This document shows positions 34,733-45,185 of a DNA stretch of 64,000 nt, in pieces (the first letter of the stretch is position 1; every line of letters begins with the position of its first letter). This DNA is from Bdellovibrionales bacterium. Lineage in GTDB: Bacteria; Bdellovibrionota; Bdellovibrionia; Bdellovibrionales; JAUICD01. A program made the position numbers and the translations under genes. Under the pieces are notes generated by a model, which ran no database searches, was not told where the DNA came from, and saw only the letters and a list, made by a program, of their open reading frames with translations. The DNA lies in assembly GCA_965203275.1 (NCBI GenBank), contig OZ241865.1, forward strand, positions 992,001 to 1,056,000, written 5' to 3'.

Positions 34733-34768
34733 GTGTTTCTTTCATACCAAATAAAACTTGCCAAATAA

Positions 34769-35134
34769 AACTTGATGGTTCCTTATAATCATCCTAATAG
34801 ATATTTATTTGGCATCCGGTGCGATCAGGGATTTTCGTTTTATGACGTGGACATATATAAGCCAGAGTTTCAAAAGAGCGATAAGGCCAAAAGAATATTT
34901 GAAATATTAAAAGCCGAATGCAAAGTTTACCAAATAACACAAAACGGCGACTATCACTTTTTTGTTAGAGGGAATTTAAAAAATAGCAATTCAAAGATAG
35001 CTCCCGGAATCGATACAAAAGGTCCAGGTGGATATGGTGTTTTATATAAATGGCCTTTTATTGGATATAATCCGAATGATAAAGACGAGTTTTTAAGCTA
35101 TTTGCGTGAGGGTGGTATCGACTCGGAAGTCTGA
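34769..35134 (+). pseudogene. C-terminal half of a bifunctional primase-polymerase (Prim-Pol)
   Basis: FGI...YDVD, TQNGDYHFF and GIDTKGPGGYGV match Prim-Pol motifs II-III. Confidence 0.75.
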
Positions 35135-35252
35135 AGTGGCTAATATGCAAATTAGAGCGGTTTAAAGGCTATTTTTAGCCATCAAAACATCAAATTTTAA
35201 GCCATGTCTATAATATTCCGACTGAATTGATAATAAAAGAGAAGGAACCCTT

Positions 35253-35663
35253 ATGTCTGATATGGTTAATAACCTAATCAATGCTTTAATCAATATATTA
35301 ATACTTATTTTTTTTAAGTGGTTGGATGAGGATAAATTGAATAAATTAAAAGGATGGATTAAGAAATTGTTTAAATTTTTAAGCGTTGTTTTATTTGTTT
35401 TATATTTATTATTAGTACCATTTGGTTTCTGGTGTTTATATGTTCAAGTTAATGATCTAAAGACACACATCGAGAGGCTTGAAACAGGACTTAATAAAGA
35501 GATAAAAGGTCTAAAAACAGATGTTAAAATTTTATCAAAGAAAATTAATGATCATCTTGATAAGGTAAATAAAGACGATAAGATAAAAAAGGCCACTACT
35601 CGTCGGCCTTTTAGAATGAAAAGAGGCTTTCATAGAAGGAATAGATGGAGAAAGTCTAAATAA
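35253..35663 (+). CDS. TM plus coiled-coil hypothetical protein
   Basis: Two hydrophobic segments, heptad region, basic tail. Confidence 0.6.
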   Translation: MSDMVNNLINALINILILIFFKWLDEDKLNKLKGWIKKLFKFLSVVLFVLYLLLVPFGFWCLYVQVNDLKTHIERLETGLNKEIKGLKTDVKILSKKINDHLDKVNKDDKIKKATTRRPFRMKRGFHRRNRWRKSK

Positions 35664-35906
35664 TTGACTTTTTTGAAGTTTTTTGTGGATATACCGATAA
35701 TGTATATTATGACAAAATCAAGCCCGGAAAGACTAAAAAAAGTTAGAGAATGGACAGCTAAAAATTCAGATGCTAGACGATTGCAACATCGTATTCGTAT
35801 GTATCAAAAGAAGTTAATGCCATTAATAGAAAAGATAAAAAAAATAGTCGATGATTTTGATGCTAGTAAACCTAAAAAAAAGAAATCACGTGCTAAACCC
35901 ACTTGA
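35664..35906 (+). CDS. small basic hypothetical protein
   Basis: ORF only; start uncertain. Confidence 0.45.
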   Translation: MTFLKFFVDIPIMYIMTKSSPERLKKVREWTAKNSDARRLQHRIRMYQKKLMPLIEKIKKIVDDFDASKPKKKKSRAKPT

Positions 35907-36227
35907 GATATATAACAATATCCTTAATAGCAAATAATACCTTATTTTTCAGAATTCTTATTTTATAGGTCTTTCAAGATGCCTTGAGTCCCGTATTTAA
36001 TCGTCGGCATGTTCACGTGAGGGTGGTCTTAACTCGGCCGGCCGATTTGCAAATTAGTGGCTAATATGCAAATTAGAGCGTTTTCATGGCTATTTTTAGC
36101 TTTCAAAACATCAAAAAAACACGAAAACCTTATCAAAAACAAAACTTTTATTGGTTTTTGTTAAAAGTTATTGACTTTTATTATTTTTAAGTAAATAATA
36201 AAATAATGTTGCGGAGGTACTTACGAA

Positions 36228-36503
36228 ATGAAAATGGAGCTAGAGTTTTTGGATTTTATTATTTTTTTAGCTGGTTTTTTTGCAATTGTTAAATATCTTA
36301 TCGGTCCGGTAAAAGATCAATTTTTGGATTTTAAGAAAGATGTAAAAGTGCAATTAAATGTTCAGATACCTACACAGATCAGTAAACTTGAGAAAAAAAT
36401 TGAAGATATGGTAAAAGAAAATAATCAAAACTATAAAGAGATATTCAAGTTATTTAATCAACATTTATCCAATAAATTAAATAAAGATAAGCCACAGGAG
36501 TAA
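36228..36503 (+). CDS. TM plus coiled-coil hypothetical protein
   Basis: GGAGG RBS, N-terminal TM segment. Confidence 0.65.
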   Translation: MKMELEFLDFIIFLAGFFAIVKYLIGPVKDQFLDFKKDVKVQLNVQIPTQISKLEKKIEDMVKENNQNYKEIFKLFNQHLSNKLNKDKPQE

Positions 36504-36519
36504 ATTATGGGCTTTAATA

Positions 36520-42722: not shown

Positions 42723-42770
42723 TCATATTTGACTTTCTTAAAGCTGTGTTGCACCTTGAAGTAAACCAAA

Positions 42771-43511
42771 GTGGGGAGACACAGCTTGAATAGAATCAAA
42801 CAATATGTGGCTTATTATAGAGTATCAACATCAAGGCAAACTATTGGCTTGCAAGCTCAAGAGACAATGGTCAAAGCCTATCTTAAAGATCAATACCCAC
42901 CTATCAAGTCATTCACAGAGAAGGAAAGTGGCAAGTGTGATAAGAATCGACCACAATTGCATTTGGCTTTGGAGTATTGCCAACAGCACAAGGCAACTTT
43001 GGTCGTGGCTACATTGAGTCGTTTAAGTAGGGATTTGCATTTTATAACGTCCTTATCCAAATCAGAGATAGATTTTGTATGTTGTGATATGCCGGATGCA
43101 ACACCATTGACAATAAACTTGATGGGAGCAATAGCTCAATATGAAAGAGAGACCGTATCTAAAAGGACAAAAAGAGCTTTGGCAGAGTTAAAAAGTCGTG
43201 GAGTGGAACTTGGAGCAAATAATCCTAAGGTTAAAGCTGGTCTTGAGAAATACCGAGACAAACAAAAAAAGGATAAAGATAACAAGGTAAAGCCTCAAAA
43301 AGTTAAAGCAATCCCTAAAGTGGATAAACCCACAAAGATAAGTCAAGCCGATCAAAAGCATATTGAGGCTTTAAAGACTTTAAGGAATAATAAATTTTCA
43401 TGGGAAAATATAGCCAATGAATTTAACAGGCTAGGATTTGAAACACGTGTTTGTGGAAAGTGGCATCGAACATCAATCAAGAGGCTTGCTGATCGTCATA
43501 ATATCCATTGA
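42771..43511 (+). CDS. serine recombinase (resolvase family) with C-terminal DNA-binding region
   Basis: YYRVST, ESGK...RPQL, LSRLSR and AQYERETVSKRTK motifs. Confidence 0.92.
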   Translation: MGRHSLNRIKQYVAYYRVSTSRQTIGLQAQETMVKAYLKDQYPPIKSFTEKESGKCDKNRPQLHLALEYCQQHKATLVVATLSRLSRDLHFITSLSKSEIDFVCCDMPDATPLTINLMGAIAQYERETVSKRTKRALAELKSRGVELGANNPKVKAGLEKYRDKQKKDKDNKVKPQKVKAIPKVDKPTKISQADQKHIEALKTLRNNKFSWENIANEFNRLGFETRVCGKWHRTSIKRLADRHNIH

Positions 43512-43520
43512 GACTATTAA

Positions 43521-43871
43521 CTAAAGAACTTCAAAATAATCATCTAAAAGAACATCATAGCTTTTATTGCATTGTTCTAAACGATCATAAAGTATGGACT
43601 TTTCGTTTTCTAAAAGCTTTAAAAATTCCTTATCAAAATCAAAACATCTATCAGGATTGTCAATTTTTTGAATTATTTGACTATGATTTTGACTATGATT
43701 ATGATCTTGATGGGTAAGCTCAAATTTATCTTTATTAAAGCTTAAAACACAGTATGCTATAATAATGGTGACTAAAAGGTTAAACAAACCAATAGCAAGG
43801 GCTACCTTGTTTTTCTTTATCAACTCCGACATACTTTCTATCCTCTTAATCTTAATGTGTTTATCTTTCAT
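43521..43871 (-). CDS. TM hypothetical protein
   Basis: GGAGG RBS, one TM segment. Confidence 0.6.
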   Translation of the reverse strand: MKDKHIKIKRIESMSELIKKNKVALAIGLFNLLVTIIIAYCVLSFNKDKFELTHQDHNHSQNHSQIIQKIDNPDRCFDFDKEFLKLLENEKSILYDRLEQCNKSYDVLLDDYFEVL

Positions 43872-44197
43872 TATTAAGGCCCTCCATGCTTACATACTTC
43901 CTTATGGACGTGTATCAGAAGGGAATATTTCACACAATTCTTTTTTATGCAAGACATTCGGCTTCCGATAGGGCTAATGTTGACACGTGCTGTCAGTGGA
44001 ATCACAAAACCCATCATCCTATAATAAACTTAAGGTTTTGTTTCAGAGCCATGATGTTTTTAAATTCACAAACCCCGGATGGGAGCGAACAATTTTCATC
44101 CGGGGTTAAAAAAAGACTGGAATGAAAAAAGAATAAGTTTTTATCCCGGTCTTGTCAAAAAAAAATAAACCACTAATGACAAGGGGGGGGGGGTAAA

Positions 44198-44401
44198 TTG
44201 ATAAACAAAAAAACTAATAAAAGACAACAAAGCCAACAAAAACCAAACCCATCAAATCTTTTCATAAATTCTTATAAATTTGCCTTAAAGATGGTCGAGT
44301 TAGGCTTCGATGTTTTCTTATGCAATAAGGATAAAACACCGGCACGTAAGGGTTCATGGAAAGATGCCAAACTAGAATATGACGAGATTCAAGAGATTCA
44401 A
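44198..44401 (+). pseudogene. N-terminal half of Prim-Pol
   Basis: ALKMVELGFDVFLC..DKTP...SWKDA matches the Prim-Pol N-terminal motif; the frame then runs into the fabG 3' end. Confidence 0.7.
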
Positions 44402-44408
44402 AGTCGTT

Positions 44409-45185
44409 TTACATCAACAGGCCACCATTGACATTTAAGGTATGCCCTGTAATGTAGCCAGCAGCATCACTGAGCAAAAAACATACAGGGGTAGCTATGT
44501 CTATTGGCTCGGCTATTCTTTTCAAAGGGATATGAGCAAGAATTTCTTTTTTTTGTGTTAAATTTTCAATCATATTTGTATTGACAAGTCCTGGGGCAAC
44601 ACAGTTGGAACGGATACCACGAGCAGCCATTTCTCTAGCTAAAGATTTAGAGAAGGCTTCAATCCCTGCCTTGCTAGCAGCATAGTTAGCTTGTCCTGCC
44701 TGGCCTCTCTGTCCATTAATACTTATGATATGCACAAATGCTCCCTTTCTTGCCTTGAGCATTGCTTTTAAAAAAAACTTAGACACCAAATAGCATCCAT
44801 ACAAGTTAGTCTTTATAGGCATTTGAAATTCTTCAAAACTCATTCTTAATAAAAGCTGATCTTGTAAAGTCCCTGCATTATTTACCACTCCGTCAATCTT
44901 TCCATCAAAGTGTTTTAAAACGTCCTCACAAGCCTTTGCAACAGAGTCTGCATTGTTTATATCCATGGTTACGGCTAGAGGTTCTTTTTGATTTTTTTTT
45001 ATGAGTAGATTTAATTCTTTAAGCAAGTTTTCTGCTTTTTGCTGGCCTTGGTGATAGGATAAAGCTATGGAAGCCCCTTGACGTGTAGCTTCTCTGGCAA
45101 CTTCTGCTCCAATACCTCCGCTACCTCCTGTGATAAAAATTTTCTGATCTTTTAAATGCATAAGAACAACCTTGTTTGATGGCAT
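44409..45185 (-). CDS. fabG: 3-oxoacyl-ACP reductase
   Basis: TGGSGGIG, VNNAG, GQANYAASK and VNGGL motifs. Confidence 0.92.
   Translation of the reverse strand: MPSNKVVLMHLKDQKIFITGGSGGIGAEVAREATRQGASIALSYHQGQQKAENLLKELNLLIKKNQKEPLAVTMDINNADSVAKACEDVLKHFDGKIDGVVNNAGTLQDQLLLRMSFEEFQMPIKTNLYGCYLVSKFFLKAMLKARKGAFVHIISINGQRGQAGQANYAASKAGIEAFSKSLAREMAARGIRSNCVAPGLVNTNMIENLTQKKEILAHIPLKRIAEPIDIATPVCFLLSDAAGYITGHTLNVNGGLLM

Follow-up and report, generated by a model that had tools for sequence, protein, structure and literature searches.

Within the 64,000-nucleotide (nt) stretch of DNA analysed here (the window; contig OZ241865.1 of a Bdellovibrionales bacterium), an element at positions 34785-44402 carries a primase-polymerase (Prim-Pol) replicase gene that is divided between its two ends. 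It is one Prim-Pol gene cut by circular permutation, with the start of the gene at the right end of the element and the part that follows at the left end. The interval is the chromosomal integrant of a small circular plasmid-like element that carries, in this order, Prim-Pol, small membrane proteins, a solitary Cas12a-type repeat, an HNH endonuclease, ankyrin genes as cargo and a serine recombinase. The element entered 6 nt downstream of fabG by a single crossover at codon 60/61 of its own Prim-Pol gene, which placed the first 60 codons at the right end and the next 105 at the left end. As an account of the whole we consider it probable that this crossover lies at a recurrent hot-spot and that the copy in the window is decaying. 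Relatives of the element would have integrated at least three times in this genome through the motif TTYAAAA within the first 140 codons, and a serine recombinase of 246 amino acids (aa), the putative agent, would act on look-alike short sites.

The two gene parts match the Prim-Pol profile PF09250 at exactly contiguous positions. The open reading frame (ORF) at 44198-44431 covers profile positions 1-42 (12.3 bits) and the ORF at 34772-35134 covers positions 43-132 (17.9 bits); each half alone falls under the PF09250 cut-off of 22.8 bits, and the intact relative P0002 scores 42.1 bits on the same profile. On a custom profile made from 33 relatives, the N part occupies positions 5-53 and the C part positions 58-160. 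Alignment to P0002 (592 aa) gives the same picture: the N part aligns to residues 2-60 and is identical from residue 12, while the left-end part aligns to residues 62-166 with 94% identity (100/106, BLASTP). At most one codon is thus missing between the halves, which makes them consecutive parts of one gene. The initial annotation had proposed that the Prim-Pol gene was split across the element ends and that the joined halves gave one in-frame domain, and both proposals are borne out. The joint 44402+34785 scores 167.3 bits as a single domain on the 33-relative profile, and the joint originally put forward, 44401+34769, scores 158.3 bits. The left end does not, as had been assumed, encode the rest of the gene, for about 425 C-terminal residues are missing.

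Relatives were collected by a HMMER scan of 1.84 billion representative proteins with the left-end part as query, which returned 34 proteins at E <= 0.001. A word-indexed protein search with the same part returned only the protein of the window itself. A plasmid collection gave one distant match (28.9% identity, Roseomonas plasmid), and solved structures gave none. P0002 as query found no match in the genome and metagenome contig collections; a 4-protein alignment found three weak, distant loci in genome contigs, none in metagenome contigs and one weak match in viral contigs.

Two left boundaries come into consideration, 34768/34769, as first annotated, and 34784/34785, as indicated by homology to the intact P0002. 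The second is more likely, because the homology resumes at NHPNRY (34787), because the residues LMVPY (34772-34786) that the first boundary adds to the joined protein are absent from P0002, and because, among the Logan contigs that provide our short-read evidence, a variant contig of run X12 ceases to match the window at 34787. Small shares of the words also occur in runs X1-X6 (sponge and marine metagenomes), on which none of our conclusions draws. Among the 22 of 34 relatives listed in the alignment, LMVPY has no alignment columns. When 44402 is joined to 34785, the sequence across the seam is that of P0002 (EIQ, N, NHP). The P0002 protein is the single source for the sequence of the element-side site as we give it.

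The arrangement "later part ... recombinase, first part", all on one strand and with no loss or overlap of more than one codon, is the order that one crossover of a circular element with the chromosome produces when it falls within the Prim-Pol gene, and we take this event as shown. Two other origins were rejected. A tandem dimer followed by deletions would need both ends to be trimmed to the same codon, and foreign DNA inserted into a resident Prim-Pol gene does not fit the order found, in which the C part comes first and the N part follows it on the same strand.

The element in the window (copy A) is one of three copies in the genome with Prim-Pol ends. In copy B (genome 1170300-1171056) a frame-shifted recombinase gene precedes an N part whose last codon is the same as in copy A (...EYDEIQEIQ). 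Where copy A has fabG, this N part runs into the interior of a truncated, reverse-oriented copy of an IS256-family insertion sequence (IS). The IS stretch at the copy B joint, read by eye, matches the element site in 12 of 14 bases, including TTCAAAA. Copy C (genome 1743986-1748758) runs Prim-Pol tail, membrane gene, Cas12a-type handle, HNH, ankyrin, recombinase, Prim-Pol middle. This is the same circular gene order as in copy A, split at window 34975-34983 with a six-A run at both junctions, and its right-hand fragment starts immediately after a further TTCAAAA, at 34869-34875. The crossover in copy A, at codon 60/61, also lies on a TTCAAAA motif. The element-side crossover point is therefore shared by two of the three copies (A and B), and the third copy is split at another TTYAAAA. 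That related elements are split at the same codon, a point raised in the initial annotation, is true of copy B and untrue of copy C. The permuted gene of 555 nt has three TTYAAAA motifs, none of them on the reverse strand, and each is a breakpoint; the same gene has 11 runs of at least four A, and the other eight are not breakpoints. We infer that the crossover site is a recurrent hot-spot and not a one-off accident.

Comparison of the Prim-Pol sequence of copy A with those of B and C over 123 codons gave 18.8 synonymous changes on 69 sites and 14.2 non-synonymous changes on 300. The resulting ratio of 0.175 (binomial 8e-7 against neutrality) argues that the Prim-Pol lineages diverged while the gene was in use, rather than as inactive halves duplicated within the chromosome. 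The integrations of A, B and C look independent, which would represent repeated entry of a circulating element family, and the shared break point of A and B is hard to dismiss as descent from one integrant. Copies B and C are themselves degraded, both with frame-shifted recombinases and internal deletions.

Directly upstream of the Prim-Pol sequence in all three copies lies a recombinase gene, which in the window (42771-43511, plus strand) is intact and encodes a small serine recombinase of the invertase/resolvase type. The 246-aa protein matches PF00239 with 91 bits over profile positions 2-144 of 145, carries the motif YYRVSTSRQ at residues 15-23, and matches phrog_125 ("DNA invertase", 8.7e-33) over residues 8-245. 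Its N-terminal catalytic domain, serine motif and length are those of the small serine recombinases (resolvase/invertase, about 180-250 aa). The large serine integrases (phiC31/Bxb1/TP901) carry a Recombinase domain (PF07508) and a C-terminal zinc-ribbon/coiled-coil part and exceed 400 aa; of the recombinase-type domains Pfam reports only Resolvase in the window protein, which is not of this large type. The three other Pfam matches listed for it fall far under their cut-offs. The XisF and CcrA models match the catalytic domain only, in part and likewise far under their cut-offs; the NCBIfam Mpi model gives 47 bits against a cut-off of 272. The protein is not of the IS607 type, with 24.3 bits against a cut-off of 110 and a catalytic domain that is N-terminal. 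The ratio of non-synonymous to synonymous substitution rates (dN/dS) among the three intact recombinase copies is 0.20-0.24. Behind ankyrin genes the recombinase also occurs without Prim-Pol, as two intact copies and about ten fragments in the genome. The initial annotation had singled out this gene as the only candidate enzyme: its identity as a resolvase-type recombinase is confirmed, and its part in the split is less well supported, as the gene also occurs about ten times in the genome where Prim-Pol is lacking. It is the most likely candidate for the integrating enzyme, and we treat it as putative in that function.

The surroundings of the recombinase gene are repeated in the genome. A conserved 43-nt stretch upstream of it (42728-42770) is found at about nine other genome loci, and the gene regularly follows a conserved ankyrin 3' end (...EAGATE, then a shared untranslated stretch). 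About a dozen such ankyrin-recombinase modules are present, most of them truncated. At least four recombinase 5' fragments are cut at one base, corresponding to window 42884 (after ...CCTATCTT/CCTACCTT; one alignment is one base longer), at genome positions 468545, 1177225, 1915039, 2356583 and others, and each of them is joined to a repeat that starts TTTCACTCAAAATG / TTTCACTAAAAGTGG. In two further fragments the cut lies at 42894, and a different sequence common to both follows. These fragments look like the product of a dispersed repeat that inserted repeatedly at one spot, or of one junction that was copied.

The element family appears to be plasmid-borne, judging from the contigs on which its relatives lie. 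Contig G183:C2, from a bacterium of the same order, has 31,540 nt and is a 15.4-kb unit assembled 2.05 times over, which matches itself with 99.8% identity when shifted by 15,365; a circular plasmid is the most likely source. Its replicase, a Prim-Pol+AAA_25 protein of 594 aa, is 39% identical to Prim-Pol part 2 of the window. The gene next behind the replicase encodes a small membrane/coiled-coil protein, and the contig also has a pilin-like gene; Pfam detects no serine recombinase, ankyrin or HNH gene on this contig. P0002 is encoded on a 28.5-kb ENA contig. With the 4-protein profile a match was found in 11 of 389 other genomes of the class, in 10 of the 11 as a single open frame of 404-726 aa, and whole Prim-Pol genes are thus the rule in the class. 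The left-end part alone, used as query, matched one of 200 other genomes of the order.

In contrast to these whole genes, the window sequence diverges from P0002 after ...EFLSYL (about 35108) and reaches a stop nine codons later, where P0002 runs on for about 425 residues. Among the 34 relatives, 28 have at least 395 aa and six have 136-300 aa, and a helicase-like AAA_25 part is seen in P0004 and in the G183 protein. The window copy lacks the AAA_25-type P-loop that follows the Prim-Pol domain in a replicase of about 590-650 aa, and a tblastn search of the whole genome with P0002 gave no match for residues 167-592 at E<0.9. The catalytic motifs are affected as well. The columns D81 and D83 of the acidic DxD motif and G116 and H118 of the Gly-x-His motif are invariant in 12 of 12 aligned relatives; the window copy keeps DVD and the histidine and has replaced Gly116 by Asp (QNGDYH versus QNGGYH), a residue that copy C retains. 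Circularisation of the window copy would thus be predicted to give a protein of about 185 aa with a doubtful active site and without the helicase-like part. In the initial annotation the attachment site lay inside the replication gene and excision restored the replicase. The position of the crossover agrees with the permuted order and with the same codon in copy B; the restoration does not, since the missing 425 residues or so and Gly116Asp mean that excision would not yield a working replicase from this copy. Because of Gly116Asp, the missing C-terminal part, the IS256 insertion and a frame-shifted pilin-like gene, the window copy looks like a decaying integrant and not like a working switch.

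The truncation after EFLSYL, with its "REGG" tail and the 60-nt unit behind it, is common to copy A, to a remnant within A at 36017-36115 and to copy C. Recombination among resident copies, a short form of the protein beside the long one, and a cassette inserting at this place are all possible explanations of the shared tail.

The shared truncation has a bearing on the reading that survives best beside ours, in which the element is a working switch that still cycles. The attachment site would lie in the replicase gene in a "suicidal" layout, the recombinase would integrate the plasmid through the TTYAAAA core, and the replicon would be silent when integrated and active as an excised circle with the gene rejoined. 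We hold this to be unlikely. In its favour, two diverged copies (A and B) are broken at the same codon, and the intact recombinase gene, under purifying selection, adjoins the site. A family that still cycles would explain both the shared break point and the purifying selection in split copies. That selection on the Prim-Pol parts is also what a still-cycling element would show, since its gene would be joined again and put to use from time to time. Both joints keep the reading frame and give one domain; a truncation common to diverged copies could mean that a form of about 185 aa works, in line with the six short relatives. The variant contig of run X12 (260 nt) covers 34787-35014 with 8 differences, thereby spanning both other motif sites, and continues to the left with 32 further letters. 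Against a working switch stands, first, the lack of its products. Neither the circular joint nor the empty site that the initial annotation led one to expect is among the joints listed (15 of 68, from four runs), in contigs that drop rare variants and leave 462 loose ends besides the joints. Word depth in unique parts of the element is no higher than in the flanks, so that depth, which for contigs is a poor measure, gives no hint of a multicopy free form. Second, the gene itself argues against it: Asp takes the place of the invariant Gly116, and the helicase-like part is missing although it is present in the closest relative, which is 94% identical. Third, the split in copy C lies at another place, the degradation of B and C is clear, and 10 of the 11 other genomes of the class with relatives have them as single open frames.

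Several points weigh against the decaying, recurrently captured plasmid that we prefer. The copies were sought with Prim-Pol queries, which biases the breakpoints toward Prim-Pol, and the TTYAAAA motif was picked after the breakpoints had been seen, so that the coincidence, though suggestive, is not a clean test. With the 34785 boundary copy A has no dinucleotide common to both junctions (with the 34769 boundary AAA is shared), and no convincing dyad symmetry around the site was noted by eye. An empty site was sought in G038, the only other genome of the genus, and none is demonstrable there, where the two flanks are about 1 Mb apart. Small serine recombinases of the resolvase/invertase type usually act within one molecule. 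The argument for decay could also be weakened if a short Prim-Pol were the working form here, and the full-length P0002 is closer to copy C than copy A is, with about 2 versus about 6 differences in about 75 residues of the stretch they share (hand count). Finally, a copy B deletion (43268/44125) and other rearrangements lie in plain A-runs, which fits illegitimate recombination driven by microhomology.

This last observation leads to the second alternative, in which the crossovers arose by microhomology at A-runs with no enzyme or site at all, and integrants with a broken replicase survived because an active replicon in the chromosome is harmful. The junctions of B and C lie in shared A-rich stretches of 6 to 7 nt, the copy B deletion just mentioned joins two A-runs, and the genome, which is rich in AT, holds numerous rearranged and truncated copies of the element modules; the lack of a recombinase on the related 15.4-kb plasmid also speaks for it. 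We nevertheless find it improbable. It does not explain why the same codon is used twice in diverged lineages, nor why the breaks fall on all three A-runs with a TTY prefix and miss the remaining eight, and the junctions of copy A have little or no microhomology.

It is highly improbable that an assembly error joined a free circular plasmid to the chromosome contig: the arrangement does resemble a linearised circle, and the runs that hold it, which come from two studies, may include the assembly's own data, but contigs of three runs reproduce one or both junctions with 0 differences (left junction, X7 and X10 at 33700-34918 and X9 at 33690-34816; right junction, X7 at 43658-45500 and X10 at 44253-45500), the unique parts of the element have the same depth as the flanks, and the IS copy within the element has a target duplication, as is also seen at other chromosomal sites. 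The junctions are therefore real in the chromosome and not an assembly artefact, and the artefact that the initial annotation had allowed for is largely refuted.

On its left the element is flanked by chromosomal genes. A tRNA-Met gene (33662-33737, plus strand; ARAGORN, and Rfam tRNA 69.5 bits) lies outside the element, about 1 kb left of the insert, and an Rfam scan of 33000-46000 found no RNA family except this tRNA. It is followed by a gene for a proline-rich ankyrin-repeat protein (33944-34732, plus strand; Pfam Ank_2 6.7e-10), from which the X7, X10 and X9 contigs continue into the element. The left junction zone (34747-34784, delimited from the sequence and the P0002 alignment) consists of a tandem 14-nt unit (34747-34760 and 34761-34774) plus 10 nt. 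This tandem, at 34747-34774 just outside the left boundary, may have arisen by slippage after integration, be a footprint or belong to the target; all three are possible. The element then begins with Prim-Pol part 2 (34785-35134, plus strand; ORF, Pfam and alignment), which corresponds to P0002 residues 62-166 followed by 9 unrelated residues and a stop.

Behind the truncated Prim-Pol gene lies a 60-nt unit (35135-35194, plus strand), which contains a small hairpin, GGCTA TTTT TAGCC, and recurs at 36056-36115 with 92% identity (repeat search, blastn). Together with the "REGG" tail it forms a unit of about 100 nt, with a second copy at 36017-36115. Each of the two copies of tail plus unit (35109-35194 and 36017-36115) stands upstream of a small membrane-protein gene, and the combination is also found in copy C; it may be a cassette boundary. 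The genes here, all on the plus strand, are a small membrane/coiled-coil protein of 136 aa (35253-35663; weak family matches only), a basic ORF of 80 aa (35664-35906; no family) and a second small membrane/coiled-coil protein of 91 aa (36228-36503). Outside the window, at genome 654134-659090, the 3' part of this last gene (36362-36504) is present in 9 tandem copies with a spacing of 540-700 bp and 82-88% identity.

An IS256-family insertion sequence follows at 36520-37919 (plus strand; transposase at 36650-37885, NCBIfam transpos_IS256 191 bits with a cut-off of 150). Besides this transposase above the cut-off it has inverted ends and an 8-bp target duplication, CTTTAATA, at 36512-36519 and 37920-37927. 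Elsewhere in the genome there are 6 more full-length copies with 99.9-100% identity, one with 99.4% and one with 95.6%. It inserted into the element at a later time.

Beyond an 81-aa ORF without family (37882-38127, plus strand) lies a solitary "handle" of the Cas12a type of clustered regularly interspaced short palindromic repeats (CRISPR), at 38157-38173 on the plus strand, with the stem-loop TCTAC..GTAGA (one match in the window against 0.02 expected). The handle sits behind a small gene and is followed, within 38157-38240, by about 30 variable bases, a GC hairpin and a T-run. It is also present in two other element copies, at genome 1744676-1744735 (copy C) and 1884193-1884260, and some Cas12a-type handles in this genome are thus tied to the Prim-Pol mobile element family. 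Next come an HNH endonuclease of 105 aa (38554-38871, plus strand; Pfam HNH 2.6e-5, phrog_2323 2.7e-21) and four ankyrin-repeat genes that form the element cargo (39216-42085, plus strand; individually 39216-39866, 39990-40907, 41028-41513 and 41543-42085; Pfam and repeats). Ankyrin genes lie upstream of the recombinase in other element copies as well. A type IV pilin-like gene (42229-42722, plus strand) is frame-broken, with its N-terminal methylation motif at 42229-42384 (Pfam N_methyl 8.3e-9) and the remainder in another frame. Between the recombinase and the right end, a membrane protein of 116 aa and no family is encoded on the minus strand (43521-43871), and a homologue stands behind the recombinase in another copy.

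Prim-Pol part 1 (44198-44402, plus strand) corresponds to P0002 residues 2-60, ends in ...EYDEIQEIQ and has its own start behind a G-run. The run comprises 11 G (44184-44194) directly upstream of a TTG start; copy B has GGGAGGGG and an ATG start at the same place, and the homopolymer could be variable in length. Chromosomal sequence starts again at 44403, which is 6 nt short of the fabG stop codon, and the last nine residues of the ORF at 44198-44431 come from the complementary strand of the fabG 3' end plus bases beyond the stop. The gene fabG (3-oxoacyl-acyl carrier protein reductase; 44409-45185, minus strand; Pfam adh_short_C2 6e-56), into which the X7 and X10 contigs cross, forms the right flank with fabD. 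The GC fraction is 0.29-0.41 across the profiled, AT-rich stretch. In G038 the left-flank genes and fabG/fabD have DNA identities of 68-71%, and their distance in that genome places the element at or near a synteny break. An ankyrin gene that converges on fabG in G038 was considered as the counterpart of the one in the window and rejected, as there is no similarity between them. A short AT-rich resemblance between the left flank of the window and the DNA beside the fabG stop of G038 was too weak and was not used.

If the recurrent break is a real attachment site, the crossover would offer a simple means of keeping an integrated replicon silent, and a small invertase-type serine recombinase would be acting as an integrase. 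A reversible switch is possible for the element family. If the break is only a hot-spot of illegitimate recombination, the locus would record the repeated capture of a circulating plasmid together with its ankyrin cargo and Cas12a-type repeat. Searches of open-access text found no precedent for a split replicase or for an attachment site within a rep gene.

Comparison with known systems places the recombinase closest to the Hin/Gin/Mpi-like enzymes, with which it shares the N-terminal catalytic domain, the YxRVST motif and about 100 C-terminal residues. To our knowledge, members of that group invert or resolve between two like sites in one molecule, and integration of a circle is not a described role. 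The small serine recombinase of IS607 does move a circle into loosely defined targets; it has its DNA-binding part first (MerR-like), unlike the window recombinase, in which the catalytic domain comes first. As for the G183:C2 plasmid, it has the Prim-Pol gene, the membrane/coiled-coil gene and the pilin-like gene in common with the element, whereas its replicase is whole and the replicon is a free concatemer.

The layout itself recalls the "suicidal" integrases of SSV1, pTN3 and pT26-2, in which integration at an attachment site within the integrase gene puts Int(N) at one end of the integrant and Int(C) at the other; the review that describes them states that they are found only in archaea (PMC8371274). 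The analogy to the split SSV1 integrase, drawn in the initial annotation, is sound for the layout, as a recombination site within the element's own gene leaves fragments at opposite ends and the gene is whole only in the circle. It does not extend to membership of the SSV1 type, in which a tyrosine integrase is split: here the host is bacterial, the split gene is the replicase, the recombinase is whole and of the serine type, and the site is loose, with two or three positions used. Integrated elements with Prim-Pol are known from bacteria, with a tyrosine or a serine recombinase and with a "cryptic" class that has no phage or conjugation genes (PMC5862659). The attachment sites in that survey are tRNA genes (14), intergenic sites (9), the guanosine monophosphate (GMP) synthase gene or the transfer-messenger RNA (tmRNA) gene, and the primase is whole (PMC5862659). 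The window element resembles those elements in being a chromosomal Prim-Pol element with a recombinase, and differs from them in having its crossover inside the primase gene. Integrated remnants of plasmids with Prim-Pol genes are common, and the copy in the window is probably dead; it is the position of the crossover that is unusual.

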